This document shows positions 4,023 through 28,566 of a stretch of DNA of 32,412 bases, in pieces; within the stretch, counting starts at the first letter, position 1; each line of letters opens with the position of its first letter. The translations under genes and the position numbers were made by a program. The notes under the pieces are model-generated. The model was not told the DNA's origin. It did not search any database and was given only the letters and a program-made list of their open reading frames with translations. The stretch is from Thermoanaerobaculia bacterium (lineage in GTDB: Bacteria > Acidobacteriota > Thermoanaerobaculia > UBA5066). The stretch is from assembly GCA_039919545.1 (NCBI GenBank), contig JBDSFL010000567.1:1-32412 (forward strand), written 5' to 3'.

Positions 4023-4319
4023 CCCTTGATCGTGGCATGCGCACCCGGGAGGGTCAATTGGATCGGCCGTGACCACGAAAAATGACGAAGCTCTCTGTCG
4101 ACTTCCGCTGGAATCCTTCCAGGGCACCCCTCCTCAGCGATCTCCACCTCAAGTCGTCACGATTCCGTGTCCGATCTCCCCGAGGAAGCACGAGGGGGGG
4201 ACAAGGGGGCTGACCACGTTCGTCCCACGAGGATTCTCCACGAGCGGAGTGACTGCTACGGAATCATCATTTCGGGCGGATTCGATCCGGCCGACCCGTC
4301 GGTGACGAAGGAGGCACGC

Positions 4320-11239: not shown

Positions 11240-11352
11240 AACGGGCCTCTGGAGAACGGGCGGGAAGGAGAAAGGGGAAGCGAAACGACTCTGATGACTG
11301 ACGACTCCATCATTCGATGATCTGCGCCCCCCTTATACTAAACTCTCACGCC

Positions 11353-11673: not shown

Positions 11674-11675
11674 GC

Positions 11676-11957
11676 ATGGCCGCGGTTCCGGAAACCCGAA
11701 GGGACTGGAAGGCCGAGGCCGACGAGCTGCGCACGGTCGTCTTCCACCTCCGCAGAAAGCTCCTGGCGCTCGCGATGGTGCTCCCCATCGAATCCCTCCC
11801 GCTGCTCGAGGCCGATCCCGAGACCATCGAATCGGCCGTGGACCTGGGCGACCTCCACCTGCTGGATTTCGATGACGGCCTCCGGATGGTGGAGAGCGAC
11901 GTCGCCACCGAGCTGCGCTTGCTGTGGGCGCGTCTGGCCGTTCGGGGAGGAGCGTGA
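11676..11957 (+). CDS. Small helical hypothetical protein
   Basis: 93 aa. The ATG lies 2 nt after the previous stop. Its TGA overlaps the GTG of the downstream glycosyltransferase (GTGA at 11954-11957). No recognisable motif. Confidence 0.4.
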   Translation: MAAVPETRRDWKAEADELRTVVFHLRRKLLALAMVLPIESLPLLEADPETIESAVDLGDLHLLDFDDGLRMVESDVATELRLLWARLAVRGGA

Positions 11958-13801: not shown

Positions 13802-15237
13802 GGCTTCTCCGCCCATCGGAGTCGCCCGTGCGTGGGATCTCGGAGCGACCCGGAGGACAGGCTTCGAGCCGAGTCGTTCGAGACCGTCGTCTCGACTCCG
13901 ATCTGGCGCTCAGCCACGGTGCCATCGACGCTTCGGAATCGAACGGAGAGCTGGTAGCGCCCCGCCGGAATCGTGCTCTTGGCGACCTCGATCACGAATC
14001 CTACGTCGTCGTGCTCGAGCCCGTGCGCGCTTGCCACGTCGGACCGCGACATTCTTCCGCAGCGACGGGATGTGCTGCCGCCCCGCTCTCCGCGAAACAC
14101 GAGCTCGATCTGGTCCGTCGCGTTCCCGTTGTCTGAAACGTAGCCCCACCCGACGACCCGGATTCGATCGGCCCAGTCGGACACTTCATCGAGGAAGGTC
14201 ACGAGGCGCAGCGAGTCAGGAGGCGGGGCCCCGTCCGCCGGCGGTTCGAGCCCGGCGCCGGAAGATTCACGTTCGTCACCGCGACGCGCAACCACGTAGA
14301 TGTTGTCGCCGCGGTTGTCCGGAGTTCCTCCAGCCATTCTGATCCAATCGAGCAATTCCTTTCTCTTGAAGGGGAGCACGCTCGGCGGGCCCGAGTAATC
14401 GATTGCCTCCATGGGGATTCGATCGTAGTCGAAGCGGTCGCGCGTCTCGGACCGAACGACCTCATACCCGTCCGATCTCAGGAGGGCGACGACTTCCTCC
14501 ACGGTGAACTCCCGGTTGTGGCGGCCGTGCACTCCGTTGTCGACCCAGTAAAGGTCGAAGAAGTTCCGCCCTCCCAGCATCGCAGCGACGTTCGCGAGCC
14601 GCAGCGCGTTCGGAAGGGTGATCACGAGAAGCCCCCCGGGGCGGAGGATGCGGCGGAACTCCCGGAACACTCTGAGGGGATTGAGAACGAGGTGCTCGAG
14701 GGTCTCGCAGAAAAGAATGACGTCGAATGTTTGCGCGGCGTACGGATACGGGTGAGCGACTTCGAGATTGAAGGTGGGAAAATTGAAGCAATAGGACTCG
14801 CCCGTCACCTCGCTCGCGATCGTCTGCTCCGAAGTCCCGATCTTGCGGGAGTAGATATCGTGCTCGAAGAAGTTCATCCCTCGTATGTCTGTCGCGGGAA
14901 ATATTTTTTTCAGCAAGAGATGAAAGAGATAGGGGTTCGCCCCGACCTCGAGAACTTGGCCGACGAGTGGAATGGGCAGCAGCTCGAGCGTATGCAGGAA
15001 GCGCCCGAAGGCATCGTCCACGTAGCTTCGGGTCAGATTTGCCGGAGCGCCCACGAGAGAAAAGCTCTTCAGGTACTGCGCCAGGGCGGGGGCGGCTTCC
15101 CTCAGCTGCGCCGTGTATTTTTGCTGGTTTGTGAGAGCGGCCCGGGCCAAGGAAGCGACGGTGTCGCGGACCGTTCGAGCGGGCAACGGGTCGCCCGCAA
15201 ATCGTGCCGCCATTGCCGCCTGTAACGTCTCATCCAT
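13753..15237 (-). CDS. Class I SAM-dependent methyltransferase with an extra beta-rich C-terminal domain of about 150 aa
   Basis: 494 aa. The methyltransferase core reads GQVLEVGANPY...FDVILFCETLEHLVLNPLRVFREFRRILRPGGLLVITLPN. The C-terminal part reads LRLVTFLDEVSDWADRIRVVGWGYVSDNGNATDQIELVFRG...GFVIEVAKSTIPAGRYQLSVRF. Its 3' end overlaps the convergent GT2-GT4 gene by 49 nt. Confidence 0.82.
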   Translation of the reverse strand: MDETLQAAMAARFAGDPLPARTVRDTVASLARAALTNQQKYTAQLREAAPALAQYLKSFSLVGAPANLTRSYVDDAFGRFLHTLELLPIPLVGQVLEVGANPYLFHLLLKKIFPATDIRGMNFFEHDIYSRKIGTSEQTIASEVTGESYCFNFPTFNLEVAHPYPYAAQTFDVILFCETLEHLVLNPLRVFREFRRILRPGGLLVITLPNALRLANVAAMLGGRNFFDLYWVDNGVHGRHNREFTVEEVVALLRSDGYEVVRSETRDRFDYDRIPMEAIDYSGPPSVLPFKRKELLDWIRMAGGTPDNRGDNIYVVARRGDERESSGAGLEPPADGAPPPDSLRLVTFLDEVSDWADRIRVVGWGYVSDNGNATDQIELVFRGERGGSTSRRCGRMSRSDVASAHGLEHDDVGFVIEVAKSTIPAGRYQLSVRFRSVDGTVAERQIGVETTVSNDSARSLSSGSLRDPTHGRLRWAEKPQAPIASSRATMRRAA

Positions 15238-15353
15238 GGGATTCGAAGTCTACTGCATGGGAGTGCCCACTCCGCCGCCGCAGCGGGACGGTCCGGTGCT
15301 GGAGAGACCCCTCCCGAGCAGGGTGCCGGCGTCCCGAGCATCCTCCGTGTGGT

Positions 15354-16346
15354 TCAGGTTCTAAGGGACCGCAGCTGCCGGTACTCTTCGTAGTCGCGGA
15401 CGTAGTCCGCCGGATCGTACGGTGCGGAGGCAAGGACGAGAAGGACCGCATCCTTCGAGAACCGATACTGAATTCCCCAGACCATGGGCGGCAGGTGGAT
15501 ACCGACTTCAGGACCACGAAGTCTGACTTCCTGGCGATGGACGCTGTCATCCACCACGACGGAGAGCTCACCGCTCACGCACACCAGAAACTGGTGGAGA
15601 GTCCGGTGCGCGTGTTCGCCCCGCACATGGCGGCTCGGGACATCATGGACGACGAAGAGCCGCACGGGTTCGAACGGGAGCTCTTTTCCGAGCTCTGCCA
15701 CGGCCAGGCTTCCCCTCAGGTCGCGAAAGCTCGCGAGACGGTGAACCGTCACGCCATCGACCACGAGCTTCTCCACGGGTGCGCCCTCGGGCTGGTATGT
15801 CTCGATGGGGTGCATCTCTGTTCCGACGTAACCCGTGATGCGCGCTGGATTCCCGACCACGATCGCGTGCGGAGGAACGTCCCGTGTCACGACGGCGCCG
15901 GCGCCGACCATGGCTCCGGCTCCGATCGTCAGACCGCACAAGATCGTCGCATTGGCTCCGATCGAAGCTCCCTTATTCACATGGGTCGTGGCGAAGGTCT
16001 CGGGACGCTTTCGGCTGCGGGGATAGAGGTCGTTCGTGAACGTCGCGTTCGGGCCCACGAAAACGTCGTCTTCGATCCTCACGCCGTCCCAGAGCTGAAC
16101 CCCGCACTTCACGGTGACCCGGTCCCCGACGACGACATCGTTCTCGATGAAGACGTGATCGCAGATATTGCAATCCTGGCCCACCACGGCATTCGGGAGA
16201 ATGTGGGCAAACGCCCAGACTCTGGTCCCGCTCCCGATCCGTTCCGACTCCACCAGCGCGGCGGGGTGGCGAAAAAACGAACTGTCACCCGCGGCGGGAT
16301 GAGACACCGGCGGCTCCGGAGAATTCGTCGCTTGAGATGACGACAT
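15354..16346 (-). CDS. WxcM-like bifunctional enzyme: N-terminal left-handed beta-helix N-acetyltransferase (FdtC/QdtC-like) fused to a C-terminal cupin dTDP-4-keto-6-deoxyhexose 3,4-ketoisomerase (FdtA/QdtA-like)
   Basis: This is the ORF 15354..16496. The start is ATG 16346 (MSSSQATN...), preceded by AAGGGAGA 7 nt upstream. Hexapeptide repeats read IGSGTRVWAFAHILPNAVVGQDCNICDHVFIENDVVVGDRVTVKCGVQLWDGVRIEDDVFVGPNATF...IGANATILCGLTIGAGAMVGAGAVV. The cupin part reads FRDLRGSLAVAE...FVVHDVPSRHVRGEHAHRTLHQFLVCVSGELSVVVDD. Confidence 0.85.
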   Translation of the reverse strand: MSSSQATNSPEPPVSHPAAGDSSFFRHPAALVESERIGSGTRVWAFAHILPNAVVGQDCNICDHVFIENDVVVGDRVTVKCGVQLWDGVRIEDDVFVGPNATFTNDLYPRSRKRPETFATTHVNKGASIGANATILCGLTIGAGAMVGAGAVVTRDVPPHAIVVGNPARITGYVGTEMHPIETYQPEGAPVEKLVVDGVTVHRLASFRDLRGSLAVAELGKELPFEPVRLFVVHDVPSRHVRGEHAHRTLHQFLVCVSGELSVVVDDSVHRQEVRLRGPEVGIHLPPMVWGIQYRFSKDAVLLVLASAPYDPADYVRDYEEYRQLRSLRT

Positions 16347-17253
16347 GATCAGGTCTCCCTTTTGTGTTCTCGAACGTGCGCCACAGGTATTCCCCCAGGA
16401 TTCCGATTCCAAGCGAGTTGAGGCCGCCGAAGAACATGACCGTGAGGACCGTCGCGGTGTAACCAGGCACCTGGATCCGGCCGTCGATGCGCGCAATCAG
16501 GACGACGGCTCCGAAGATGAGCGAGAGCGTGATCCCCGAGAACCCGAAAAAGCTGAGAAGCCGGATGGGAAGATCCGAGAACGCGAAACAGCTATCCAGC
16601 AGGTAGCGAACTTTCCTTCGGAACGACCACCCGCTCTCGCCGTGCTTCCTGGGCCGCCGGGAATAGGGAATCTCGAGCCGGCGAAAGCCCAGCCAAAATA
16701 TCAATCCCACGAGCGTGGAGTTTCTTTCGCTCAGGGCGAGAAGCTGGTCTCTGAACCGGAGGGTACAGCCGAAGACGTCCACTCCCCCCCGCGGGACGTC
16801 GCGCTGCACGAACGCCCGGTACAGCCCCCAGAACGCACGCGAGAACAGACGGTCGAAAAGCGGATCGGAGCGAGAGTCCCGTCGTCCCACGGCGACGTCA
16901 CAGAGCCCCCCCTGGAGAGCATCGAAGAAAGCGACGATGAGCTCAGGCGGCTCCTGGAGATCGGCCGCCATGACGGCGAAGTGTTCGCCGCGTCCCGCCG
17001 CCAAGCCGGCGCGAATCGCCGAGAAGGAGCCGAAATTGCGGCTCAGAACGAGGAGCCTCGAACGGAATGCCGCGTCAGGCAGCACCCTTCGAAGGCATTC
17101 GAGGCTTCGATCGGGGCTCCCGTCCACCACGAACACCACCTCGAAGGCCTTTCCGAGCGCGGTATTCAGCTCCTCGAGCGCCTGGACCAGATCCGGTATG
17201 GAAGCCTCGTTCCGGTAGACGGGGATCACCAGGGAGAGGGTCAACCCCGCCAC
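16285..17253 (-). CDS. Polyprenyl-phosphate glycosyltransferase, GT2 (GtrB/ArnC/DPM1-like) with C-terminal TM helices
   Basis: This is the ORF 16285..17487. No ATG lies near the domain start. The start is either GTG 17253 or TTG 17244 (a TTGA overlap with the aminotransferase stop). The sequence reads LSLVIPVYRNEASIPDLV...VVFVVDGSPDRS...RNFGSFSAIRAGL...MAADLQEPPE. Two C-terminal TM helices follow, ending GILGEYLWRTFENTKGRP, which is a hallmark of the GtrB/ArnC family. Confidence 0.8.
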   Translation of the reverse strand: MAGLTLSLVIPVYRNEASIPDLVQALEELNTALGKAFEVVFVVDGSPDRSLECLRRVLPDAAFRSRLLVLSRNFGSFSAIRAGLAAGRGEHFAVMAADLQEPPELIVAFFDALQGGLCDVAVGRRDSRSDPLFDRLFSRAFWGLYRAFVQRDVPRGGVDVFGCTLRFRDQLLALSERNSTLVGLIFWLGFRRLEIPYSRRPRKHGESGWSFRRKVRYLLDSCFAFSDLPIRLLSFFGFSGITLSLIFGAVVLIARIDGRIQVPGYTATVLTVMFFGGLNSLGIGILGEYLWRTFENTKGRPDHVVISSDEFSGAAGVSSRRG

Positions 17254-18356
17254 TCGTTTGCCGCCTGCACGACCCTTTCCACATCCTCCTCCGACAGGAA
17301 AGGATGAATCGGCAGAGAGACTTCCCCGTCGGCGAAGGATGTCGCGTTCTCGAGCGCTCCATGAATCTCCTTCGCGGCGCCACCGAGCGCCTTCTGTGCC
17401 GGGATGAGCCGCGGATAGTGGATGCCCGTCAGGATCTCGGCTCCCGCCAGATGCGTCCGGAAGGCTTCCCGCCGCGCCGGCTCGCAAAGGACTGGGAAAA
17501 GGTGCCAGGTCGAATCGGAGCCTGCCGGAGCTCCGATCACATTCAGCGCCCCTTTACGAATGCTGGAGCTGTAACGCGCCGCGATCTCACGTCTCCGGGC
17601 GATCCAGCGATCGAGGCGAGGCAGCAACACATCGGTGAGAATGGCCGCCTGCACCTCGTCGAGCCGGCTATTCAGGCCCTCGACATCATGAACATACGTC
17701 GCCGACTGACCGTAGTTCCTGAGCGCGCGGGCCCGCTGCGCGAGAGATGAGTCAGCGGTCAGAAGAGCGCCTCCATCTCCGAGCGCGCCGAGATTCTTCG
17801 TTGGATAGAAGCTCGTTGCCGCGACCTGGCCGACGCTTCCCACAGTGCGGCCGCCGAAGCGGGCTCCGATGGCCTGAGCGCAGTCCTCCACGATCGAGAG
17901 ACCAAATTCGAGCCTCAGGGTTTCGAGCTGCTGAAGGTCCATGGCGTGCCCGAAGAGATGCACGGGCACCAGAAAGCGAATCGTGCGATCCAGGGTCAAG
18001 ACCTCTCGACAGGCGGACAGATCCAGCAAGCCGAATCGGTCGGTATCGACGAAGACGGGAATACCGCCACACCGGCAGATCGCCAGCGTGGTGGCGAAGG
18101 CGCTGAGCGGCGTCGTGAGCACCTTGTCCCCGGGACGCAGGCCGAGGCAACGGAGCCCGATCTCGATGGCATCGAGGCCGTTCCCGACACCGACGGCGTG
18201 CGGGATGCCCCACCAACCGGCGAGGGTTGTTTCCAGTCGTTCGACCTCGCGACCCAGGATGTACCAGCCGCTCGCGCCAACGCGCCCGAAAGCGGCCGCG
18301 GCTTCCTCGCCGATCTCCGCCCACTGGGAGCGAAAGTCATTCAACAGAACGGTCAC
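17241..18356 (-). CDS. DegT/DnrJ/EryC1/StrS-family PLP-dependent sugar aminotransferase (FdtB/QdtB-like)
   Basis: This is the ORF 17241..18575. I start at GTG 18356 (VTVLLNDFRSQWAEIGEE...), preceded by AGAGGGA, which gives a protein of typical length (371 aa). The sequence reads ASGWYILGREVERLE...HAVGVGNGLDAIEIGL, with the PLP-Lys context ATSFYPTKNLGALGDGGALLT. Confidence 0.88.
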   Translation of the reverse strand: MTVLLNDFRSQWAEIGEEAAAAFGRVGASGWYILGREVERLETTLAGWWGIPHAVGVGNGLDAIEIGLRCLGLRPGDKVLTTPLSAFATTLAICRCGGIPVFVDTDRFGLLDLSACREVLTLDRTIRFLVPVHLFGHAMDLQQLETLRLEFGLSIVEDCAQAIGARFGGRTVGSVGQVAATSFYPTKNLGALGDGGALLTADSSLAQRARALRNYGQSATYVHDVEGLNSRLDEVQAAILTDVLLPRLDRWIARRREIAARYSSSIRKGALNVIGAPAGSDSTWHLFPVLCEPARREAFRTHLAGAEILTGIHYPRLIPAQKALGGAAKEIHGALENATSFADGEVSLPIHPFLSEEDVERVVQAANEWRG

Positions 18357-18566
18357 GATTTCCCTCTGACATTCCTCATCGATGCTCTGGATGTTAGCCC
18401 GTGCTGCGGTGTGGTTCGAAAAGCCGAGGAACCTATCCGGGTGATCGCGGGAAAGCGCGCATGGGCGCGCGCGAGACGTAAGGCGTGATAGCGCCTGCAT
18501 GGCTCGAGGCCCGGCGAGTTCTCCGCGTGGTAATTTCGAGCCACCCTCATGGTGATCGGAGAGTCC

Positions 18567-20618
18567 ATGGCCCAAGCGCGACCCTCAAAGCTGAAAAAGT
18601 TGCAGCCCGATGCCCCTCCCGAGACAAAGAGTTCCGCGCCGCATCTTGGCTGGATTGCATTTTCCGCCGTTGCCCTGGGATTGCTTCTCTACTACCGGAC
18701 GTTCGGGGCGTCGTACGCTTACGACGACATCGATTACCTGAACGAGGCGGCCGAAACGCTCTCGGGACGCCCGGGGTTCTGGTCCTCTCTTTTTCGCCCG
18801 CACCAGGGCCACATCGTGCCCGCGCTCCGAGCGCTCTTCACGCTCAACACGTGGCTGTTCGGCACCAATGCGCTTGCGTTCAGGCTCCTCATCTTCGCGT
18901 CTCATATCGGCACGGCGTTTCTTCTCGCCCTGATTGCGCGAAAGCTGTGTCCCTCTCGATGGGCCGCACCAGCGGCTGCCCTCGCCTACGTGCTCCCCGC
19001 AGGGCTGTCCTCGATGTATCTCTGGTTCCCGACCGCAGGCGGACCGCCCCTCGGGCTCGTCTGCTTCTCGGGCGCCCTGGCTGCCGTGGTCTTTCGACGA
19101 GAGCTCGGGCCCCGGCTGTCCCGTGCGCTCGCGATCCTCGGCATCCTTCTCACGCTTTCCTTCGAGAGCGCCCTCTTGCCCATGATCTTCCCCATTGCCT
19201 TCGTGGACGAGGTGGAACGCCGACGCGAGGTAAAGCCCCGGAGTCCTGCTGGCCTCATCAGTCTCTTCTGTCTCATCCTGGGAGTGTTGACGGTCGCAAT
19301 CGCTTCCGGCGCCTACACGCAATCCACAAGTCTCGGTGTGACGTTTCATCCCCTCGCCGCCGTCGAAAGAGCCGTGTTCCTCGTGCTCGTGGCCCCTTTC
19401 CGGCTCGTCTTCCCTGGCCTGCTTCTCGTGCGTCCCGCCGGAGCGAGCGAGCTTTTTCCGTTTCGCGCGTGCCTCTTCGGCCTGTTCCTGACCTTGCTGG
19501 GGTCGGCATTCGCCGCCGCGGTCTTGCGGAAAAAGGCGCTTCCCCTCGCCGTTCTCTCCGGCATCACCCTCACCGGCCCCCTGGGTTTCATCCTGCTGGT
19601 CGCCATCGGGCGCTGGGACGTGCGCTACCAGGATCTGTACGACGCGGACCGCTATTTCTTTCCACTCCTGATTCCGCTTTCGCTCCTTGCTGGTGCGGTG
19701 ACGGGCAGCATTCCAGAGGCACTGAAAACCTGGTCGACCACGCGCCAGCGCGTCGTCGTCATCCTCGCTCTCGCTGCTGTTCTCGTCGAGCTGCGCTTTC
19801 ACCAGCGGGCCCTGATCGAACGGGTCCCGTTCGAGGTCTATCAACAGCACGCACGGCGCTTCCAGCAGCTTTCGGAACTCGGGCGGCTCCTCTCGGAAGC
19901 AGCGGATCAGCTGCCCGAGGGAGCGCCGCCGCTCCGTGTTCCCGATGCCTCGCTGTTCTTCGAGGAAGTACACAACCACCGGATCTCGACCCGCTTGCTG
20001 CTCTTCCTGTCGACCCGGCCTCGGTCTCCCCGGCTGCAGCTCGGAGCCCTTCACGTGGACGCTCGCGATCAGAGCCTTCTGAACCCGGTGCTGGACCGGT
20101 GGGCGTCGGGGATCGGCGAACCTACGCCATACTTTTCGGTGATCGACGGCGAGCTGCGGAACGCACGCGAACAAGGCACGGTGAGGTTCGGGCTCGGGCC
20201 CGCCGACGCTTCCGTGAACAACGGCTTCTACGGCTGGGAGAATGAGTACCGCTGGATGGCAGGCGAGGGAGACCTGAATGTGGTCGCGACCTCCGAGCGC
20301 CTGACCCTGGTGCTCGGCACGCCGCTCTCTTCGATCCTCAAGGCGAGGCCCGAATGGACCTCGATTCCCGTCACGGTGACCGTGATCAACAAAACCAGCG
20401 GAGAGGTGAACGCCGTCGGCACCATCCAGGTGCGACAGGATGGGATTCACCCCTACGAGCTGAAGCTGCCGGAGGGGCTTGCGTCGTCGTTGAAGAATCG
20501 TCCCGTGCGTCTGATCCTCAGGGCGGAGCACACCTGGCGTCCAGTGGATGTAATACCCGGCTCACGGGACGACCGAACCCTGAGCGTTCAGGTCTATGAG
20601 GCCGGTTTCAGACCCTGA
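18567..20618 (+). CDS. GT-C-like membrane glycosyltransferase candidate with a soluble C-terminal domain of about 230 aa
   Basis: The track ORF is 18549..20618. ATG 18567 has GGAGAG 3 nt upstream. The first-loop acidic motif is GASYAYDDIDYLNEAAE, and many hydrophobic segments are present. The C-terminal domain reads FYGWENEYRWMAGEGDLNVV...RPVDVIPGSRDDRTLSVQVYEAGF. It is divergent from the aminotransferase operon. Confidence 0.72.
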   Translation: MAQARPSKLKKLQPDAPPETKSSAPHLGWIAFSAVALGLLLYYRTFGASYAYDDIDYLNEAAETLSGRPGFWSSLFRPHQGHIVPALRALFTLNTWLFGTNALAFRLLIFASHIGTAFLLALIARKLCPSRWAAPAAALAYVLPAGLSSMYLWFPTAGGPPLGLVCFSGALAAVVFRRELGPRLSRALAILGILLTLSFESALLPMIFPIAFVDEVERRREVKPRSPAGLISLFCLILGVLTVAIASGAYTQSTSLGVTFHPLAAVERAVFLVLVAPFRLVFPGLLLVRPAGASELFPFRACLFGLFLTLLGSAFAAAVLRKKALPLAVLSGITLTGPLGFILLVAIGRWDVRYQDLYDADRYFFPLLIPLSLLAGAVTGSIPEALKTWSTTRQRVVVILALAAVLVELRFHQRALIERVPFEVYQQHARRFQQLSELGRLLSEAADQLPEGAPPLRVPDASLFFEEVHNHRISTRLLLFLSTRPRSPRLQLGALHVDARDQSLLNPVLDRWASGIGEPTPYFSVIDGELRNAREQGTVRFGLGPADASVNNGFYGWENEYRWMAGEGDLNVVATSERLTLVLGTPLSSILKARPEWTSIPVTVTVINKTSGEVNAVGTIQVRQDGIHPYELKLPEGLASSLKNRPVRLILRAEHTWRPVDVIPGSRDDRTLSVQVYEAGFRP

Positions 20619-20630
20619 CCACGACATCTC

Positions 20631-22544
20631 TCATTGGAAATACCCGTTCACGTCCAGGATGAGGTGTACCGCGGCGGGTGAGACGTTTGCGAACGTAACG
20701 GCGCCCGACCCGTCGAGGGGAAGCGCCGTCAATCCGTTGTTCGCGCGCGTGATGCCTGCCGAGAAGCTCAACGAGCTGGCCGTGGGACGCAGAGTGCCCA
20801 GATAGATGCTGATGAAACCGGCTCCACCGGGGCCGGTGACGGCCGCGTTGAAGCTGACGCCTCGAGCAGTCGCCGGCACGCTGCACCGGTTGGTGAGCGT
20901 GAAGGCTCGAGCTTCGTTCGCTGAGAGCGCTGGGCCGCCGATGGCGCCGGGGCTGATTCCCCGGGTATCGATCAGCCGACACGGCGTCAACGCATAGAAC
21001 CGCGTCGCCGTCGCACAGTTCGGAGTTCCGGGGACGACGCCACGATGGAGCTCATCGTGCTGGAACATTCCCCAGGGCACGGGGAGTGTGGGTGCTTTCG
21101 GGTTCCAGACCCAGACGCCGGTCGCGCCTGCCGTGGCCGAGGGTGCGATGGCCACCACGTCGATGCTGGTGGCGGAATTATCCAGAGTGCCTACGGCGAT
21201 GTTGTAGAGCGAGCCCGAGACCCCGAACGTGAATCCCCCAACGGGGTGAGAGCCGTTGTCGGTGAGCTGCACTCCCGTGCTCGAAATCACGCAGATTTCC
21301 CCGTTCGTCGGAATGAGGATTTCCGGCGAGGAATTCCCGAGGACGTCGCCCACCATGGGGTCCCCCGCGCTCAGATTCGCAGCGAAGTAATCCCTGATCA
21401 CCACCGGAGCGAACAGCGGAGCGCCGCTCCCACGGATCGCGTAGCAGCGCCGCAGCTGGTCAGGACCCGAGTTGTCGTCCGTGACGACGACTTCCGGCAC
21501 GCCGTCTCCATTCAGGTCTGCGAGCGCGGGTGCCATCACCACCTGGCCGAGGACGCTCACGGGCCAGCCGGAAACGGCCGTGCCGTCGCAATGAAAGGCG
21601 TAGACGGCATGCACCCGGCTTGGCCAGAAGCCTCCCGTTCCGACCACGATCTCCGGCTTCCCGTCGCCGTCGATGTCTCCGACCGCCGGTGAGCTGGTGA
21701 TTACTTGATCGAGGAACTTCGGAAAGCCGCCGAAGTTCGTCCCGTCGGCACGAACGACGTAGAGGCCTCCGCCGTCAGGTGTACTGATCGGAGCCGCCTG
21801 GAAGTGCTGATCGGAGCCGACGATGATTTCCAGTCTGCCATCGCCGTCGAGGTCGAAGAGGGCTGGTGACGACCAGATCGTGTCGTAGGTTCTGTAGGGA
21901 AAGCCCGGCTTTTCGGCGCCGGTTCCGGCGTCCGAAACATGAATGAATTCATCGAAACCGGTCCAGACGACTTCGTTCTTGCCGTCCCCGTCGAGATCGC
22001 CGATCGCGGGCGCCGTGACGATCGGGGCTGTCGCCCCGACAAAGGTGCCGGAAAGCCTCTCCCAGAGGAGATTTCCCGCAGTGTCGTAGGCGCGGAGACC
22101 GCCCCCGTTGACGTTAGAGCCGTTGTTCGAGCCATACCCGATGATGATCGCCGTCACGACAGAGCCTCCGGCCAGAGTGACCGGACCGACGGCGGGCGTG
22201 CTGACGACCTCTCGCGGAAGGGTCTTGGGGAAGCTAGCCGCAGCGGTTCCGTCGTATTTCACGACATACAGTCGACCGGCGGTTCCGGATGGCCCCGACG
22301 TGCCGAAGACGAGGGATTTGTGGCCAGGAGTGAGGCCGAGCTCCGCAAACACGACGTGTCCGAAGGAAGTGCCTCCCCCCGGGAGGACCAGACCGGTCGA
22401 GGGAAAACCCGCTCGGTACGTGCCGGGAGGAGGGCAGGGCTGACCGATCGGGACACATTGCGCGCCCGCATCGGATTCGATGCCGGCCATGAAAACCAAG
22501 AGGAGGAAAGATGAAAATCGACTTCTTGGACCAAGATGATTCAT
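20631..22544 (-). CDS. Secreted FG-GAP/VCBS-repeat beta-propeller protein carrying the shared C-terminal module
   Basis: This is the ORF 20631..23447, but its 5' part overlaps the upstream GT-C gene. The real start is ATG 22544 (MNHLGPRSRFSSFLLLVFMAG...GAQ signal), with GGGAGAG 6 nt upstream. The repeats are IGDLDGDGKNEVV, LFDLDGDGRLEIIVG, VGDIDGDGKPEIVVG and LADLNGDGVPEVVV. The protein ends ...HLILDVNGYFQ-stop. Confidence 0.85.
   Translation of the reverse strand: MNHLGPRSRFSSFLLLVFMAGIESDAGAQCVPIGQPCPPPGTYRAGFPSTGLVLPGGGTSFGHVVFAELGLTPGHKSLVFGTSGPSGTAGRLYVVKYDGTAAASFPKTLPREVVSTPAVGPVTLAGGSVVTAIIIGYGSNNGSNVNGGGLRAYDTAGNLLWERLSGTFVGATAPIVTAPAIGDLDGDGKNEVVWTGFDEFIHVSDAGTGAEKPGFPYRTYDTIWSSPALFDLDGDGRLEIIVGSDQHFQAAPISTPDGGGLYVVRADGTNFGGFPKFLDQVITSSPAVGDIDGDGKPEIVVGTGGFWPSRVHAVYAFHCDGTAVSGWPVSVLGQVVMAPALADLNGDGVPEVVVTDDNSGPDQLRRCYAIRGSGAPLFAPVVIRDYFAANLSAGDPMVGDVLGNSSPEILIPTNGEICVISSTGVQLTDNGSHPVGGFTFGVSGSLYNIAVGTLDNSATSIDVVAIAPSATAGATGVWVWNPKAPTLPVPWGMFQHDELHRGVVPGTPNCATATRFYALTPCRLIDTRGISPGAIGGPALSANEARAFTLTNRCSVPATARGVSFNAAVTGPGGAGFISIYLGTLRPTASSLSFSAGITRANNGLTALPLDGSGAVTFANVSPAAVHLILDVNGYFQ
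20634..21002 (-). other. Shared C-terminal two-Cys module, copy 1 (123 aa)
   Basis: RFYALTPCRLIDTRG...GGPALSANEARAFTLTNRCSVPATARGVSFNAAVT...SAGITRANNG...HLILDVNGYFQ-stop. Confidence 0.8.
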
Positions 22545-22582
22545 ATGAAGCTCTCCCACCAGCCTAGCAGGTCCGCCGGCCG

Positions 22583-24613
22583 TTAGCTGCGATTCCCAGG
22601 CCTCACCGACACGCTCATCACGTTCGGTGTCCCCGTTTCGTTTCCGAACCACGCGACCATCTCCTGAACGAGATCGTAGGTGACGACGTAGGTACCGGGC
22701 TCGACGGGCGCTCGGATCGGAAACTCCGCGCGGAAGGACTGACCCGGTTCGATCCGTCCGGGCAGAAAGAATCGCACCGGCGACTCGACCGGAGCTCCGG
22801 CGATATCCGTTCGTGTCCACCGGTGCCCGACGTGAACCGGCGCCATCCAGGAGCAGGGGCTCGCGTTCGTGACCTCGAAGGAAACCTGCACGGTCTCGCC
22901 GCCGGCGACCGTGTGGGGGTGCCGAATGGTCTTCCACCATGCGGCATGGCCTACGGAGGGTAGCGGGATGGATCTCACGTTTCGAAGGAGCGCCAGCGTT
23001 CCCGGCTCGAGATCGCTGAAAATCGAAAATGCTCCCGCGGACGTCATCCGATACCTTTTCCGGTGTTCGACGAGGTAATCCTCGAAACAATTCGAACGAG
23101 GAGAGAGAAGAACCAAGGCGGGGTTCACAGCCCCATCGACCTCGCGTTCGTAGACCTCCTGCCTCACGATGTCCTCTCCCCGGAGCGGTGTCGCGATGAT
23201 CGACTCGAGTGTCTCGAATGACACCCGGTACGCCGTCCAGTAGCTTGCGTAGATTCGATCGATGCGCTCGGCCTTCAGCTTGGAAACCAGCTGATTCAAC
23301 GAGCCTGTCACTTCTCCGTCCGCCACGACGGTCGTGTGCGTACGCGCCCCAGACAGGCCCGCCGCATGGGTTGCCAGAATTCCCACGAATGCGACGCGTG
23401 AGATCGCCGAAAAGCGGTCGTGTGCTGTCGCCCTCCCCAACGCGCATCCGATGAGCGGGGGCAGGATTGCATAGAGCGTCACCAGAAACCGAGGTTCCGT
23501 TGGCGCGAACCGCCTCGACGCCGCACCCGCGACCAGGACGAAGAGCCCCGCCAGAACAAAAAGCAAGATTCTTGGATCACGGCGGAAGGGCCTTGCCGCA
23601 AGGGGGGCGAGGGCAACCAGCAGCAGCAAACCGACGATCGGCCAGGCTCCCGGATACGCCATCAGCCGGTCGCTGAACGGCTGCGAGGCACCCAGCAGAA
23701 CCGCGAGCGATTTCCGGAGCACAAGGCCCAGATTCGACAGGAGCCCCGCCCCGCCGGCGAGCCCCACATCGGGAGACGAAAGGCTCATCCATCGGTGCCC
23801 GGCATTCCAGTACCACCACGGACCCGATCCGACGATCGCGCCACAGCCCAGCGCCAACGCGGAAGCACCAAAGGGTTTCAGGTATCCGCAAAGCAGGAGC
23901 CACAACAAGGCAGCGGCGACCACGGGAGGCGAGATGGGAGTGACCCAGAGTCCGATGCCCGCCAGCAACCCGAACACGCTCAAAGGAAGCACCGAAGCCT
24001 TCACGCGGGACGCCCGGCTCTTCTGCCAGAGCGCAGCCGACAGGAGCCCCAGCGCGATGAGCTGAGCCGAAGCATAGTGGCCATCGGAGGTGGTGCCCTT
24101 GTAAAGGAAGAACGCGGGAGGAAGCGCCAGGTACGCCGTCCCGAAAAACGCGGCTCTGGCCCCGAACGTACGACGCGTCAGCTCCCAGACGCCGAGGACG
24201 ATGAGGAAGACCAGGAACACCATCGCCCCGCGATAGGTCGTCATCGAACCGCCGAATACCCGGAATACGACAGCAAGATAGTGGGCTTCCAGGCTTCCCG
24301 CGTACGTCGATCCGTAATAGAAGATCGGATGTCCCTTCCCGTGAAGAATGTCGAGCGCCATCAATCCGACGATCGCCTGATCCGAGGTCTCGGGGATCCG
24401 GTGCGTCGTGAGCACCCACGTGACACTTCCCGAGAACATCAGGATCAAGGCGAGGGCAGCCGCGGTCATCCAGCGACGGCTCGGAGATGGCACCAGGGAA
24501 TCAACCGCTGGTCGTGTTCCTGATTTTGTCTCGATGAGCTCGGTCGCGAGGGGGTGGGGTTTTCTCGTCAACATGGGAACCGTGAGTCGCAGAGCCTCGA
24601 CGGGCTGCAGCAC
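22583..24613 (-). CDS. GT-C glycosyltransferase (GT39/ArnT-like) fused to a C-terminal Ig-like domain (LVxExVxWF family, copy C)
   Basis: 676 aa. The start is GTG 24613, with ATG 24574 as an alternative. The first loop reads RIPETSDQAIVGLMALDILHGKGHPIFYYGSTYAGSLE, and many TM segments follow. The C-terminus (about 22586-22960) reads ...VQVSFEVTNASPCSWMAPVHVGHRWT...LPGRIEPGQSFRAEFPIRAPVEPGTYVVTYDLVQEMVAWFGNETG. Confidence 0.8.
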   Translation of the reverse strand: MLQPVEALRLTVPMLTRKPHPLATELIETKSGTRPAVDSLVPSPSRRWMTAAALALILMFSGSVTWVLTTHRIPETSDQAIVGLMALDILHGKGHPIFYYGSTYAGSLEAHYLAVVFRVFGGSMTTYRGAMVFLVFLIVLGVWELTRRTFGARAAFFGTAYLALPPAFFLYKGTTSDGHYASAQLIALGLLSAALWQKSRASRVKASVLPLSVFGLLAGIGLWVTPISPPVVAAALLWLLLCGYLKPFGASALALGCGAIVGSGPWWYWNAGHRWMSLSSPDVGLAGGAGLLSNLGLVLRKSLAVLLGASQPFSDRLMAYPGAWPIVGLLLLVALAPLAARPFRRDPRILLFVLAGLFVLVAGAASRRFAPTEPRFLVTLYAILPPLIGCALGRATAHDRFSAISRVAFVGILATHAAGLSGARTHTTVVADGEVTGSLNQLVSKLKAERIDRIYASYWTAYRVSFETLESIIATPLRGEDIVRQEVYEREVDGAVNPALVLLSPRSNCFEDYLVEHRKRYRMTSAGAFSIFSDLEPGTLALLRNVRSIPLPSVGHAAWWKTIRHPHTVAGGETVQVSFEVTNASPCSWMAPVHVGHRWTRTDIAGAPVESPVRFFLPGRIEPGQSFRAEFPIRAPVEPGTYVVTYDLVQEMVAWFGNETGTPNVMSVSVRPGNRS

Positions 24614-24615
24614 CC

Positions 24616-24652
24616 GTCCCGCCGCGCTCGACTCGAACGAACGCAGCGGGAC
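24616..24652 (-). promoter_or_regulatory. Intercistronic stem-loop immediately 5' of the GT-C start codon
   Basis: The minus-strand RNA is GUCCCGC-U-GCG [15-nt loop] CGC-G-GCGGGAC. This gives an 11-bp stem that includes one G-U pair. The 3' arm carries the only purine-rich SD-like element (GGGAC) and ends 2 nt before GTG 24613. The stem starts 20 nt after the stop of the upstream gene. No U-tract follows. Confidence 0.35.
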
Positions 24653-24672
24653 GACTGATTACTGACCTTGAT

Positions 24673-25215
24673 TTACTGGAAGTAGCCGGTGACGTCGATC
24701 AGGAGATCGAACGTGAACGTATTCGTACACTGAAACACGCCCCCGATCGTTCCGCAGCCGGCCCCAAGCACCTGGAAGTCCTGGCCGGTGAAGTTCCCGC
24801 CGCCCGCCGCGGTGCCGCCGAGCGGAACGATGGCGCCGTTGGCGATCGTCTCGTTCTGGTAGTAGTTCGTGGTGGAGACGTTCGGGAATGAGCCGGGAAA
24901 GGGCGCGATGCGAAGGTCTCCGCCGCCCGCATTTGGATTCACGATCGTTAGGTTGAGCGAAACGGCGGCGGCATTGGCCGGCACTCCGCAGAACCCGCGC
25001 ACCGTGAATGCGCGCGTGGTGGCCGAGCTGATGGTTCCACCGCCCGTGCCGGCGGCCGAAGGCTGCCCGGCTCTCGTGTCGTAGGCGCGACACGGCGACA
25101 CCGCGTAGTAGGAGTACGGCCCCCCCGTCACCTGCGCGAATGCGGCAGAAGAAGAGAGGAGTGCGACGGCTCCCGCGAAGAGGGCAACGACCCTGGGACC
25201 GAGATGATTCTTCAT
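24673..25215 (-). CDS. Small secreted protein consisting of a signal peptide plus the shared C-terminal module only
   Basis: 180 aa. AAGGAGAA lies 3 nt before ATG 25215. The signal is MKNHLGPRVVALFAGAVALLSSSAAFAQ. The module reads YYAVSPCRAYDTR...RAFTVRGFCGVPANAAAVSLNLT...FDLLIDVTGYFQ-stop. Confidence 0.82.
   Translation of the reverse strand: MKNHLGPRVVALFAGAVALLSSSAAFAQVTGGPYSYYAVSPCRAYDTRAGQPSAAGTGGGTISSATTRAFTVRGFCGVPANAAAVSLNLTIVNPNAGGGDLRIAPFPGSFPNVSTTNYYQNETIANGAIVPLGGTAAGGGNFTGQDFQVLGAGCGTIGGVFQCTNTFTFDLLIDVTGYFQ
24676..25113 (-). other. Shared C-terminal two-Cys module, copy 2 (146 aa, with a Gly-rich insertion and one extra Cys pair)
   Basis: SYYAVSPCRAYDTRAG...CGVPANAAAVSLNLTIVN...GGTAAGGGNFTGQDFQVLGAGCGTIGGVFQCTNTFTFDLLIDVTGYFQ-stop. 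Confidence 0.8.
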
Positions 25216-25243
25216 GTGTTCTCCTTTGAGAGCCTTTCCATTC

Positions 25244-26662
25244 TCATGGAAACGCTCCGTTCACGTCAATGATTAGATGGGTGCTCCCGGAAGCCCCCTC
25301 GAAGAGGGCCGTCAGGCCTTGCTCGGGGGACAACCAGATGATGGCGTTGTTGGCGCGCGACTTGCCGGCGGCGAAGCTCACGGCGCTCGCTGCGCTCGGG
25401 CCGGAATGGGTGGCGAAGAGGCGAATGAGGCCCGCAGTGGAAGCATTCACGGCCGTCACGTTCGCCGAGATCGCCCGCGCACCGGGCGGAATGCCGCACT
25501 GGCCGGCTACTGAAAACGTTCGCTCGACGCCGTTTGCAAGCGCTGGCCCTCCCAGGTTTCCCGCGGCGAGCCGCGTATCGAGCAGGCGGCAGGGTGTCAG
25601 TGTCTTGAGCTGAAGCGGGCCGAGCGGGGGACGCCAACCGAGCTGGATCACTTCGAAGTCGCTTGCATGGAGCGCGCCAAAGGCTGGATTCAGGAGGCCG
25701 TTGTCCCACCGCGTGTCGTAGGTGCCCTGGATGTACATGTTCGAGCCGTTGTCCGCGACGATGAGCCCGTACGTCTTCATCGCCTGCACGATGCGCTGCA
25801 CGCCGGCGTCGGCGCTCGCCACCGTGACGCCGGGCTTCAGGCGCATCCGCGTGCCCATCGGGAGCGCCCCCACGGTGGAACCGGCGTCGTGTGAGCCCGG
25901 ATACACGTAGTCAAAGGAGTTCTGCACCGTGAAACGGAACGCGTGCTTGATCGGAGACGCACCGTACGCCTCGTCGTAGCGAACGAGCCCGGGCAGGATC
26001 GCGAGGCCCGCCGCATCGGCGCTCGTCCACGTGTCGGGCCTGCGCGCGTTCGAATCCAGCGAAAAAATGGCTCCCGAGCCGGCGCTCCAAGTGCAATTCG
26101 CGTCATCTGCCGGAAGGCACCGCGTGTTGAAGGTCTCGAAAAGCAGCCGATTATCGGTATCGACGATCAGCATGTGGTTGTCGCCCGCACACGGCGACGT
26201 CTGAGGGGTGGGGAGCGTTCGGTCGCAGTTGCCCGGATAGCCCCCCTCGATCCAGTGCGGCAGCGTTTTCGCCTGGTTGGGGATCGGATAACCCAAGGGG
26301 CGCCCCGGCGCACCGTAGTCGCTCTCGGTCGGGTAGTCGAAGGTCATCTCCACGAGCGGCTGGGTGCCGGGAACCGTGATGTAGACCATCCCGTAGATCG
26401 CGGTCGGACCCGCATCGCCGCCGAAATCGGGATGCAGCGCTCGCGTGCCGCCGATGTGCGCGATCAGCGCGGCGCTCTTGAGGTCCACGGGCGCGCTCGT
26501 GACGTCGACGTTCCACCAGTTGTCCGCTGGAAAGAGCGGGTTTGGCCCGGGCAGAGGGCCGCCGGGAACGGCCTGAGCAACCGCGAAGGCGGACGTCATC
26601 GCACTCGCCGCGCCGAGGGCGAGCACGAGCAGGGCGGATCGGGCGCTACTGGAAGTAACCAT
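25244..26662 (-). CDS. Secreted protein of unknown function (N-terminal domain of about 340 aa) carrying the shared C-terminal module
   Basis: 472 aa. The signal is MVTSSSARSALLVLALGAASAMTSAFAVAQA. The N-domain has conserved-looking blocks DNWWNVDV, HPDFGG, RPDTWTSADAAGLAILPGLVRYDE, IKHAFRFTV, LPMGTRMRLK and YGLIVADNGSNMYIQG. I recognise this as a recurrent uncharacterised family but cannot name it. The protein ends ...HLIIDVNGAFP-stop. Confidence 0.8.
   Translation of the reverse strand: MVTSSSARSALLVLALGAASAMTSAFAVAQAVPGGPLPGPNPLFPADNWWNVDVTSAPVDLKSAALIAHIGGTRALHPDFGGDAGPTAIYGMVYITVPGTQPLVEMTFDYPTESDYGAPGRPLGYPIPNQAKTLPHWIEGGYPGNCDRTLPTPQTSPCAGDNHMLIVDTDNRLLFETFNTRCLPADDANCTWSAGSGAIFSLDSNARRPDTWTSADAAGLAILPGLVRYDEAYGASPIKHAFRFTVQNSFDYVYPGSHDAGSTVGALPMGTRMRLKPGVTVASADAGVQRIVQAMKTYGLIVADNGSNMYIQGTYDTRWDNGLLNPAFGALHASDFEVIQLGWRPPLGPLQLKTLTPCRLLDTRLAAGNLGGPALANGVERTFSVAGQCGIPPGARAISANVTAVNASTAGLIRLFATHSGPSAASAVSFAAGKSRANNAIIWLSPEQGLTALFEGASGSTHLIIDVNGAFP
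25247..25612 (-). other. Shared C-terminal two-Cys module, copy 3 (about 122 aa)
   Basis: QLKTLTPCRLLDTRLAAGNLGGPALANGVERTFSVAGQCGIPPGARAISANVTAV...AAGKSRANNA...HLIIDVNGAFP-stop. Confidence 0.8.
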
Positions 26663-28403
26663 TCACGTCGAGGATGAAGTGGATCGTACTCGCAGATTCG
26701 TTCTGAACGGCCAGAGTTCCGGCGGAATTCGTCGCGAGGCGAAGCTGGGCGCTGTTGGCGCGCGTCAGACCGGGCGCGAAGGTGATGGACGTGGACGAAG
26801 GAGGGCCGAGATCAGCCGGGTAGATCTTCAGGTCTCCGGCGGCGGCTACCTGAGTCACCGTGATGTTCCCGGAGATCGACTTCGCGCTGGCCGGAACGCC
26901 GCACGAGCCCACGATGGGGAACACCCGGAGTCCGTTGGCGGCCAGCGCAGGCCCTCCGAGGGAGCCGGCCGCGTTGCGCGTATCCACCACGCGGCAGGGC
27001 GGAACGGAATAGAACTTGATGGGGCCCGCCGCGGCGACCGTGAACGGGAAGATGCATGTTCCGACGGCGGCGACTATCTTCGGCTGGAGCAGCGCCACCG
27101 AGGTGGGATGAAAGACGTTCTTGGCGCTGCAGCCGGCGATCCCCGACACGTGGCAGTAGCTCATGAGCGTGCCCGTCACGCTCGGAACGCCGTTGTAGGT
27201 GGCGGCTGCGGGGCAGCTCGTCCCGGGACCCGGCCAGCAGGTTGGGCCGGACTGGATGTAGCAGGTGTCGATCGGCGGGTTGTAGCAGTGGGTGTGCGGA
27301 GAGCCGAAATTGTGGCCGACCTCGTGCCCCACCACGTAGGTGTCGCCGGTCAAGTTTCCCGGCTTGAAGACCTGGCTGTAGCTGTAGCCGGTCGAGGAGC
27401 TGTTGCAGAGTCCGTCGAGCCAGGCGATGCCCGAGGCCGAGAAGCCGCTCGACTGCTTCCCCGAGAGCATCATCGCGAGCGCCCGAGTGATGCCGCCGTT
27501 GTTCGTGGCCCAATAGTTCGTGAATTCGTTGAGGTTGGCGATGCCGGCGCCGCCGTTCGTTCCCAGCGCATACGGGTCCGGCGTCGTGGTGACCCGCAGG
27601 AACGTCGTGCCCTGGACGAGCCGGACGAGCAGGTCGCGCTCGTACATCAGGCTCATCGAGGCGAACAGGCTGGCGATGTAGTTCGTGGCGTTCGTGGTGT
27701 TGTCGCCGTAGAACGCCATCAGCTCGTTGTCGGTGTCGACCGCGATCACGGCGGTGTGGAGCGAGGTGATGGCCAGCGGCGCGACGCCGGCGAGCGTCTG
27801 GCGCGGCGCGGCGTCGACGGCGGGATCGTAGGGAACCTGGTCCTCGCCGCACGACCACCGGCGCTCGGCCTGCTGCTCGGGCGACAGGAAAGACTGCGCT
27901 TCCCCGAGCACGTGCCGCGCGCCCTCGTCCCCGGTCTCGGCACGCAGCTCCTGCAAGCCGGCCTCCGTCTCGGCGAGGCCATGAAAGGTCTTGCGATCCG
28001 GATCGAGGATGACGACGACGCGCGTGGCCTCGTCGCCCGCCACCGTGCCCCAGAAAAAATGCAGGCGCGATTTCGGCAGCTCCGTGAGCGTGCCGCCATC
28101 GACGCGGAAGATGCGGGCGTCCGCCGCATAGACGTCGTGGCGGGTGAGAGACACCTCGGCGCGTCGTCCGGGAGAGAGCGGCCAGCCGGCGATCGAGACC
28201 TCGCTCTCCATTGGGATCTCCTCCAGGAAACCAGGGAGCGCTGCATCGAACGACAGGCGCTCCATCCGGCTCACGCCGTCGCGCGCCAGGTCGAAAGTGC
28301 CCGCCGTGGCCGCACGGCCTTCGAATCGCCGCACCGGCGCCGCTTGCGCGAATCGCGCCGAGACGACGACACCGAGGAGCAGCAGACGCAGGACCCGTTG
28401 CAT
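26646..28403 (-). CDS. Secreted zinc metalloprotease (reprolysin/M12B-like zincin) carrying the shared C-terminal module
   Basis: 585 aa. The signal is MQRVLRLLLLGVVVSARFAQA. The zinc motif YVVGHEVGHNFGSPHTHC (HExxHxxGxxH) lies at nt 27294-27326 on the minus strand, and the catalytic domain is Cys-rich. The protein ends ...HFILDVNGYFQ-stop. The 3' end overlaps the next gene by 17 nt. Confidence 0.85.
   Translation of the reverse strand: MQRVLRLLLLGVVVSARFAQAAPVRRFEGRAATAGTFDLARDGVSRMERLSFDAALPGFLEEIPMESEVSIAGWPLSPGRRAEVSLTRHDVYAADARIFRVDGGTLTELPKSRLHFFWGTVAGDEATRVVVILDPDRKTFHGLAETEAGLQELRAETGDEGARHVLGEAQSFLSPEQQAERRWSCGEDQVPYDPAVDAAPRQTLAGVAPLAITSLHTAVIAVDTDNELMAFYGDNTTNATNYIASLFASMSLMYERDLLVRLVQGTTFLRVTTTPDPYALGTNGGAGIANLNEFTNYWATNNGGITRALAMMLSGKQSSGFSASGIAWLDGLCNSSSTGYSYSQVFKPGNLTGDTYVVGHEVGHNFGSPHTHCYNPPIDTCYIQSGPTCWPGPGTSCPAAATYNGVPSVTGTLMSYCHVSGIAGCSAKNVFHPTSVALLQPKIVAAVGTCIFPFTVAAAGPIKFYSVPPCRVVDTRNAAGSLGGPALAANGLRVFPIVGSCGVPASAKSISGNITVTQVAAAGDLKIYPADLGPPSSTSITFAPGLTRANSAQLRLATNSAGTLAVQNESASTIHFILDVNGYFQ
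26649..27017 (-). other. Shared C-terminal two-Cys module, copy 4 (123 aa)
   Basis: KFYSVPPCRVVDTRNAAGSLGGPALAANGLRVFPIVGSCGVPASAKSISGNITVT...APGLTRANSA...HFILDVNGYFQ-stop. Confidence 0.8.
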
Positions 28404-28448
28404 GGTGCACCTTCACTTTCACCCTTGCAGTGAAAAAATCTGCTCGAA

Positions 28449-28478
28449 TCTTACAAACGTGTTTTGTGTCACAGCAAG
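28449..28478 (-). promoter_or_regulatory. Sigma70-like promoter candidate for the 28403->20631 operon
   Basis: On the minus strand the -35 is TTGCTG (comp. 28473-28478), followed by an 18-nt spacer and the -10 TAAGAT (comp. 28449-28454). It lies about 45 nt upstream of ATG 28403, which has a GAAGGTG SD. It sits in the most AT-rich stretch of the window (28404-28470). Confidence 0.4.
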
Positions 28479-28566
28479 TCCAGAGCCGCTCCTGGCCCGG
28501 GTGCCAGTGCTGACTCGACCTGCGGCCAGTGCGCTCCTGGAGTCGGGCGCGAACGTCAAACGCGGT

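Follow-up and report, generated by a model that had tools for sequence, protein, structure and literature searches.

What does a piece of protein do when the same version of it closes four neighbouring secreted proteins that have little else in common? The question is raised by the window, that is, the whole stretch of 32,412 nucleotides (nt) analysed here (contig JBDSFL010000567.1 of a Thermoanaerobaculia bacterium, Acidobacteriota), where four of five consecutive minus-strand genes at positions 20631-28403 end in one shared module. An earlier note on this DNA had described the arrangement and proposed to read it as a new tag for sorting or attachment, connected with a C25 peptidase, GT-C genes or wzm/wzt genes. 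The arrangement was confirmed, with coordinates that match to the nucleotide, whereas the tag was not upheld, given the tandem triplets, N-terminal copies, monoderm members, weak gene linkage and jelly-roll fold found in the wider family. The answer favoured here, held at about even confidence, is that the module is a non-catalytic extracellular knob for binding or anchoring, formed as a trimer or as a pseudo-trimer of three repeats, which retains its carriers on an extracellular polymer, probably a glycan of the envelope or matrix.

The genes follow each other with operon-like spacing (one overlap of 17 nt, then gaps of 28, 59 and 38 nt):

26646-28403, minus strand: reprolysin/M12B-like secreted metalloprotease of 585 amino acids (aa), with signal peptide, protease domain and module (Pfam Reprolysin_5, E = 2e-17)
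25244-26662, minus strand: secreted protein of 472 aa, with 345 N-terminal aa of unknown family and then the module; kept in syntenic loci
24673-25215, minus strand: module-only protein of 180 aa, made of a signal peptide, the module and nothing else
22583-24613, minus strand: GT-C/PMT_2-like polytopic membrane protein, the member without the module, with a C-terminal Ig-like domain; conserved in the operon, with a homologue in four syntenic loci (L161-L164)
20631-22544, minus strand: FG-GAP beta-propeller protein of 637 aa, with signal peptide, propeller and module (FG-GAP_3, E = 1e-18; FG-GAP, E = 2e-16)

The four module copies lie at the very ends of these chains:

26649-27017, minus strand: copy 1, the last 123 aa of the metalloprotease, KFYSVPPCRVVDTR...LDVNGYFQ-stop (hidden Markov model (HMM), E = 7e-61)
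25247-25612, minus strand: copy 2, the last 122 aa of the 472-aa protein, ending IDVNGAFP-stop
24676-25113, minus strand: copy 3, 146 aa, the entire mature part of the 180-aa protein, with an insertion of ~20 aa before the last strands
20634-21002, minus strand: copy 4, the last 123 aa of the FG-GAP propeller protein

Alignment of the four copies gives 23 invariant columns and identities of 37-44% to the first one, and the only pair compared by BLASTP (modules of the 472-aa and 180-aa proteins) reached E = 3e-13, which indicates homology and not chance. Moreover, the module HMM found exactly these four copies in the six-frame translation of the whole window. The finer details of the earlier description were also borne out: two copies measure 123 aa (the others 122 aa and 146 aa), the quoted motifs are all present (PCRxxDTR, together with GGPAL and GxxRAN in three of the four copies each), three chains finish in GYFQ-stop and one in GAFP-stop, and all four proteins begin with a Sec-type signal peptide, judged by eye from a basic n-region and the hydrophobic stretch behind it. 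The modules have no C-terminal hydrophobic helix, their maximum 19-aa Kyte-Doolittle hydropathy being 1.06-1.38. The insertion of copy 3 brings an extra cysteine pair (GAGCGTIGGVFQC), which is kept by the orthologues P0003, P0010, P0025 and P0068; orthologues of this 180-aa protein are module-only as well and measure 169-188 aa.

A large family outside the catalogues

A family profile built from 118 sequences was searched against representative protein clusters at the level of 50% identity; 37,407 of them reached E <= 1e-3, and 13,960 reached E <= 1e-30. Profile searches with the module, including tandem and actinobacterial members, gave no match in Pfam-A (2025), NCBIfam (2026), PHROGs or the sequences of the PDB, in agreement with the earlier note, which called it unassigned, and full-text literature searches (C-terminal sorting in Thermoanaerobaculia and Acidobacteriota, the secretion system of type IX (T9SS) and PorU, motif strings) retrieved no description of it. 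A sub-threshold match to the NCBIfam 'bluetail' model NF041519 (14-15 bits against a cut-off of 21) appears in the relative P0128 at residues 273-301, across the border of two repeats (DxNGYF, linker, FYxxxPCR), and at residues 400-410 of a protein from locus L166.

Within the Acidobacteriota, the single-copy form seen in the window is found in Thermoanaerobaculia, Holophagales and Vicinamibacteria, and one narrow peptide pattern alone gave 542 confirmed matches in species-representative genomes. Its placement and clustering were counted in the 80 best loci of other genomes, where 104 of 108 modules have their chain stop one or two residues past GYF (the last residue being Q, E, R or K); similarly, 116 of 120 database matches to the module end no more than three residues from the end of the chain. 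Two to four module genes stand together in 25 of the 80 loci. The cargo placed in front is varied, comprising in 52 single-copy proteins reprolysin (10), TIG (9), FG-GAP (6), DUF11 (5), glucose/sorbosone dehydrogenase (4), BNR (3) and matrixin (3) domains, as well as trypsin, beta-helix, M14 and others, while related loci add GH44; altogether, it is rich in proteases and adhesins and not dominated by carbohydrate-active enzymes (CAZymes). The picture of a module locked to the terminus of heterogeneous cargo thus holds far beyond one operon.

Two kinds of conserved residues deserve separate treatment. The first is the cysteine pair, which had been taken to suggest a disulfide. Across 1,333 family modules, a comparison that is confounded by phylogeny, both cysteines are present in 903, neither in 401 and only one in 29, a both-or-neither pattern that supports a disulfide in the acidobacterial branch. 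On the other hand, all 349 actinobacterial copies lack both, and the disulfide is therefore dispensable for the fold. The second kind is the set of residues invariant throughout the family, which are polar (R, D, T, R, N, T, N, D) and so hint at a site for a ligand or an ion, beyond a simple hydrophobic contact surface. N55 and T57 of the module are conserved at 90% or more.

Copies in threes and a jelly-roll fold

The best-scoring relatives carry the module repeatedly. Among the 149 best, ranked by the summed score of all copies and hence favouring multi-copy proteins, 132 have three copies, 13 have six, one has nine and three have five, with none showing four, seven or eight; several of the six-copy proteins consist of three copies, a spacer of ~90 aa and three more, and others of six contiguous copies. 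For the homologues of one relative (P0002), three copies were counted in 109 of 119. Repeats 1, 2 and 3 have their nearest neighbour at the same position of another protein in 129, 120 and 116 of 138 cases, so that the triplet must be an ancient unit kept by descent rather than a recent local duplication; the four window copies are equidistant (36-39%) from all three repeat positions. The earlier note had accepted that homologues which are mostly repeated, and lack linkage to peptidase or glycan genes, would speak against its tag, and this is largely what the family looks like, with tandem copies in 149 of the 149 best-scoring relatives.

Terminal placement is also common in the repeated form, since 135 of the 149 proteins end three residues or fewer after the last copy. 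In 8 of the 149, more than 30 residues follow, and in several of these eight the triplet sits directly behind the signal peptide, for instance ahead of a GH113 domain. Searches of plasmids with tblastn revealed triplets in Streptomyces, Curtobacterium and Arthrobacter, including a C-terminal one in an actinobacterial PKD protein of 546 aa and an N-terminal one that precedes the cutinase domain of a 1069-aa cutinase-family protein from Curtobacterium. The RxLDTR...DxxGY repeats of Actinobacteria, which the earlier note placed in cell-wall enzymes, were thus found. As to the cell-wall detail, RefSeq labels the Streptomyces module proteins 'hypothetical' or 'PKD domain-containing', and a homology search with the actinobacterial triplet for fusions to cell-wall hydrolases returned only close PKD-plus-triplet orthologues, annotated as hypothetical.

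A structural view of the module came from an AlphaFold2 model of copy 1 made on an alignment of 118 sequences (pLDDT 96.2, pTM 0.89), which predicts a jelly-roll sandwich of eight strands; the 180-aa protein modelled from its single sequence reached a pLDDT of 38 and was unusable. In the PDB, the best Foldseek match is the C-terminal tip of the Bdellovibrio fibre Bd2133 (8ok3/8ond; E = 1e-4, TM score 0.58-0.60, 13-14% identity), followed by coat proteins of plant viruses, a trimeric cement protein of phage, subunits of the Ena spore appendage, the TNF-like lectin BC2L-C, the carbohydrate-binding modules (CBMs) CBM22 and CBM4, and Cry1Ac, with Xyn30D, a modular xylanase, and a pectate-lyase binding domain also matched. 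The Bd2133 tip is a beta-sandwich of ~120 aa at the extreme C-terminus that trimerises, its binding pocket being formed where the protomers of the trimer meet (PMC10769870). The best fold matches among viral models include phage tail-fibre and tail-collar fibre proteins, with TM scores up to 0.67. At the level of sequence, only three module relatives were found in the 2.9 million viral contigs of IMG/VR, and a phage origin was rejected on this ground; one of the three (L168, 3923-5137) is a 405-aa protein formed by a single module triplet.

Copy number and fold together fit a functional unit that would be threefold. The four window tails are single-copy members of a large, uncatalogued family of extracellular jelly-rolls, in which three tandem copies, or two or three triplets, may fold into one pseudo-trimeric knob, whereas in the single-copy proteins of the Thermoanaerobaculia/Holophagae type three chains would associate to build the same knob. 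Such a knob would act as a binding head by which enzymes and adhesin-like proteins exported through Sec stay attached to a polymer beyond the cytoplasmic membrane, much as SLH or CWB2 triplets retain cargo at Gram-positive walls and trimeric fibre tips bind receptors. A role in binding and retention is favoured because the architecture resembles that of SLH and CWB2 modules (three copies, either terminus, unrelated cargo, many paralogues per genome), and because the structures closest to it belong to trimeric binding heads at C-termini.

The fold also gives room to a different kind of binding, in which the jelly-roll would be a substrate-targeting CBM that concentrates enzymes on environmental polysaccharide and takes no part in retention at the cell. 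Xylan-binding CBM22, CBM4, Xyn30D and the pectate-lyase binding domain are indeed among the matches, and some carriers are hydrolases of polysaccharides or polyesters (GH44, GH113, cutinase). These CBM matches (E about 1e-2, TM scores 0.3-0.48) are, however, weaker than those to the fibre tips, and the identified cargo is mostly made of proteases, propellers, Ig-like adhesin repeats, dehydrogenases and a cupredoxin. Moreover, classical CBMs are not known to follow a strict 3/6/9 rule of copy number, and this explanation is considered unlikely.

Trimeric neighbours in fold space, a strong C-terminal bias and copies in threes could also be expected from a module that only trimerises or stabilises its cargo, as a folding nucleus with no ligand of its own, in the way of fibre and collagen-like knobs. 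Three-copy proteins would nevertheless already be intramolecular pseudo-trimers and therefore gain no oligomerisation from their repeats, the cargo consists of globular enzymes and not of fibres, the invariant polar residues suggest a binding or ion site, and the module-only proteins would have nothing to assemble. Pure oligomerisation is thus distinctly unlikely.

Peptidase, membrane proteins and glycan genes around the module

Outside the operon, the window contains the genes to which the idea of a sorting tag was tied, and a further membrane protein:

5901-8246, plus strand: PorU-like C25 peptidase (NCBIfam PorU, E = 6e-55; 186 bits against a cut-off of 420)
8276-9730, minus strand: GT-C/PMT_2 gene beside the C25 peptidase, paired with C25 homologues
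9616-11239, 15354-16496, 17241-18575, minus strand: glycan-cluster genes (Wzt and Wzm; hexapeptide acyltransferase fused to an FdtA-type isomerase; DegT aminotransferase)
18549-20618, plus strand: polytopic membrane protein of 689 aa, convergent with the operon; conserved syntenic partner, with an adjacent homologue in L162-L164

According to that idea, the module would work like the C-terminal domain (CTD) of T9SS cargo, being recognised at the outer membrane and cut by the C25 peptidase, after which the cargo would be attached to the glycan that the Wzm/Wzt and GT-C genes produce. Several observations fit: ~96% of the single copies close their chain, on Sec-signal cargo that matches T9SS cargo in variety, the only PDB sequence relative of the window peptidase is PorU (6za2), and the glycan export cluster adjoins the module operon. 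But the linkage does not extend to other genomes, because a module gene lies within 10 kb of a C25 homologue in only one (L148) of 80 loci, the four syntenic loci L161-L164 contain no C25 gene, and the lists of the 80 best module loci and the 80 best C25 loci have just two assemblies in common, which is weak evidence. The peptidase was consequently rejected as a dedicated partner of the module. Furthermore, its 186 bits fall well below the PorU cut-off, the module also comes as tandem triplets, can stand at N-termini and is present in monoderm Actinobacteria, with no outer membrane to cross, and the eight-stranded jelly-roll has no T9SS CTD within its top 50 PDB matches. Models of the T9SS CTD (PF18962/TIGR04183 Por_Secre_tail, and TIGR04131 for type B) did not match the module region of the four proteins at E <= 0.1, conserved module-only proteins would be odd for a signal that is cleaved off, and T9SS was confined to Bacteroidetes in a published survey (PMC4793230). 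Sorting of this kind is therefore regarded as quite improbable.

What the peptidase does have is a partner of its own. In 38 of 80 loci (L081-L160), the C25 homologue adjoins a homologue of the GT-C gene at 8276-9730, in hosts that include Acidobacteriota, Lysobacterales, Deltaproteobacteria, Methylomirabilota and Binatia. PorU-like peptidase and GT-C gene thus form a pair that is conserved outside Bacteroidota and is independent of the module.

The module operon, for its part, keeps a conserved synteny with two GT-C-like membrane proteins. Loci L161-L164 show the gene order SmpB, GH44-module, reprolysin-TIG-module, 464-aa-module, 176-aa module-only, two large membrane proteins and FG-GAP-module, and the module-only gene holds its place in all four. 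Both membrane proteins are assigned with caution: for the one encoded at 22583-24613, the Pfam matches to PMT_2 (E = 7e-5) and N_BRCA1_IG (E = 3e-4) stay under the gathering cut-offs, and the 689-aa protein has no family match, being GT-C-like by context only. Orthologues of the metalloprotease occur in loci L001-L039 and again in L161-L164. The 345 N-terminal aa of the 472-aa protein (25628-26662, minus strand), with no Pfam, NCBIfam or PDB sequence match, form a conserved family nonetheless, with P0040, P0092 and the 464-aa genes of L161-L164 as members. As for the propeller gene, its start is MNHLGPRS, and a longer open reading frame (ORF) extending up to 23447 overlaps the GT-C gene and was rejected as a gene.

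Such synteny led to the consideration that the two co-operonic GT-C-like proteins might glycosylate the module itself, at the near-invariant N-x-T of strand 3 formed by N55 and T57. Yet the actinobacterial copies conserve this N-x-T just as well, and it is part of a beta-strand, so that it looks structural or ligand-binding; on these two grounds its reading as a glycosylation sequon was rejected as the main explanation. Since the FG-GAP copy has N-A-A at this place, most module genes elsewhere have no GT-C neighbour and the GT-C assignments are below the Pfam cut-offs, a glycosylation acceptor appears very improbable.

Upstream in the window lies a Wzm/Wzt ABC-transporter glycan cluster with glycosyltransferases, methyltransferases, the FdtA-acyltransferase fusion and the DegT aminotransferase, a set that presumably makes an ABC-transporter-dependent glycan containing a 3-acetamido-3,6-dideoxyhexose. 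In a relative (L088, JACQZW010000039.1, 7086-12913), the C25, GT2, SmpB and HD-GYP genes are adjacent, with neither glycan cluster nor module operon, and the ~19 kb that hold both in the window (~9700-28500) therefore behave as a variable surface island. Two further observations belong to the left part of the window. An ORF of 178 aa located shortly upstream of the C25 gene (5322-5858, plus strand) has a match to the NBR1-type Ig-like domain N_BRCA1_IG under the Pfam cut-off (E = 6e-4), comparable to that of the GT-C-like protein, and at 1771-4127 overlapping ORFs of 594, 404, 207 and 208 aa on both strands gave no Pfam or NCBIfam match.

The closeness of several module genes allows a more specific version of the knob, in which three chains, perhaps different products of the same operon, would share one knob and so dock as mixed enzyme complexes on the glycan of the co-encoded GT-C/Wzm/Wzt genes. 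The protease, GH44, the propeller and the 472-aa protein would be its members, with the module-only 180-aa protein as a filler. This split trimer is suggested by the clusters of two to four module genes in 25 of 80 loci, by the conservation of the module-only gene and by relatives with exactly three copies, and it is put forward as an unlikely variant. If true, it would amount to a surface display of cellulosome or SLH type, so far undescribed in diderm Acidobacteriota.

Returning to the binding and retention knob in general, homology, family size, fold, terminal position, multiples of three, cargo diversity and presence in diderms and monoderms are directly supported. Several points count against it. 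Trimerisation, ligand binding and surface retention are inferred, and the trimer draws on copy-number statistics and on moderate TM-score matches (0.58-0.67). The list of 149 relatives, biased to multi-copy proteins, does not give the true ratio of single copies to triplets, and the multiples of three could partly reflect block duplication of an ancestral triplet. Binding alone leaves the extreme C-terminal position of ~96% of single copies unexplained. Finally, glycan genes do not recur beside the module genes outside this operon: among 125 of their neighbours elsewhere, scanned with Pfam, no family was found in more than four and no conserved processing or transport partner emerged.

In terms of meaning, the module would represent a new, uncatalogued family of appended extracellular jelly-rolls for binding or oligomerisation, and no new class of secretion or sorting machinery. 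With at least 37,000 clusters (50% identity) across the soil phyla Acidobacteriota and Actinomycetota, and neither a Pfam or NCBIfam name nor a solved structure, its naming and modelling would help to annotate much of the exoproteome predicted for poorly cultured Acidobacteriota. A family model should capture the fold, the copy number in multiples of three and the near-absolute terminal position, whereas the trimeric binding knob offers a testable hypothesis for how enzymes are retained at the cell surface in these organisms.

Likeness to known systems

With the T9SS CTD the module has in common a beta-sandwich placed at the extreme C-terminus of diverse Sec cargo, as well as, in the window, a PorU-like C25 peptidase 12 kb away. 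The CTD is, however, an Ig-like sandwich of ~70-100 aa and seven strands, to be compared with ~123 aa and eight strands in a jelly-roll, and it is a single terminal copy of diderms that have the T9SS, whereas the module forms triplets, is also found at N-termini and in Gram-positives, and is not linked to C25 genes elsewhere. Signals of the PEP-CTERM or LPXTG type, in which a short motif precedes a hydrophobic helix and a basic tail, are equally foreign to it, as the chains end in ...DVNGYFQ and no sorting-signal model of NCBIfam or Pfam matched. From the analogies drawn in the earlier note, T9SS-like sorting is not supported, and a looser likeness to non-covalent anchoring modules such as SLH, which it also named, is what stays.

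CBM22, CBM4 and the lectin BC2L-C share with the module the jelly-roll class, a non-catalytic and extracellular nature and an often terminal position, and TNF-like lectins are in addition trimers with sites at the interfaces between protomers; the matches to them are weak, as given above, and the module cargo is mostly not made of CAZymes. Closer in structure are the tip of the Bd2133 MAT fibre and those of phage tail fibres, the former having a similar size (~120 aa) and extreme C-terminal position and acting as a trimeric adhesive head. Differences reside in the low identity and moderate TM scores, in the scarcity of viral relatives and in the cargo, since the module sits on globular enzymes and not on long beta-helical fibres.

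The closest functional counterparts would be the SLH and CWB2 modules, of which three tandem copies form a pseudo-trimer that binds a wall glycopolymer. In fold they are different, the module being a jelly-roll of ~123 aa and not a helical SLH or a CWB2 domain, and neither SLH (PF00395) nor CWB2 (PF04122) matched the window proteins or the three-copy relatives; the module is found, moreover, in diderm Acidobacteriota as well as in monoderms, and its binding to glycan would be a presumed property. In the rest of their organisation both appear to follow the same plan, namely a non-catalytic unit at either end of unrelated secreted proteins, used in three copies or as a single oligomerising one, with many paralogous cargo proteins per genome. 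The family studied here carries its three-copy units at either end of varied extracellular proteins, whereas the window proteins have one copy each, a likeness to the SLH/CWB2 triplets that is best described as a functional analogy and not as membership.

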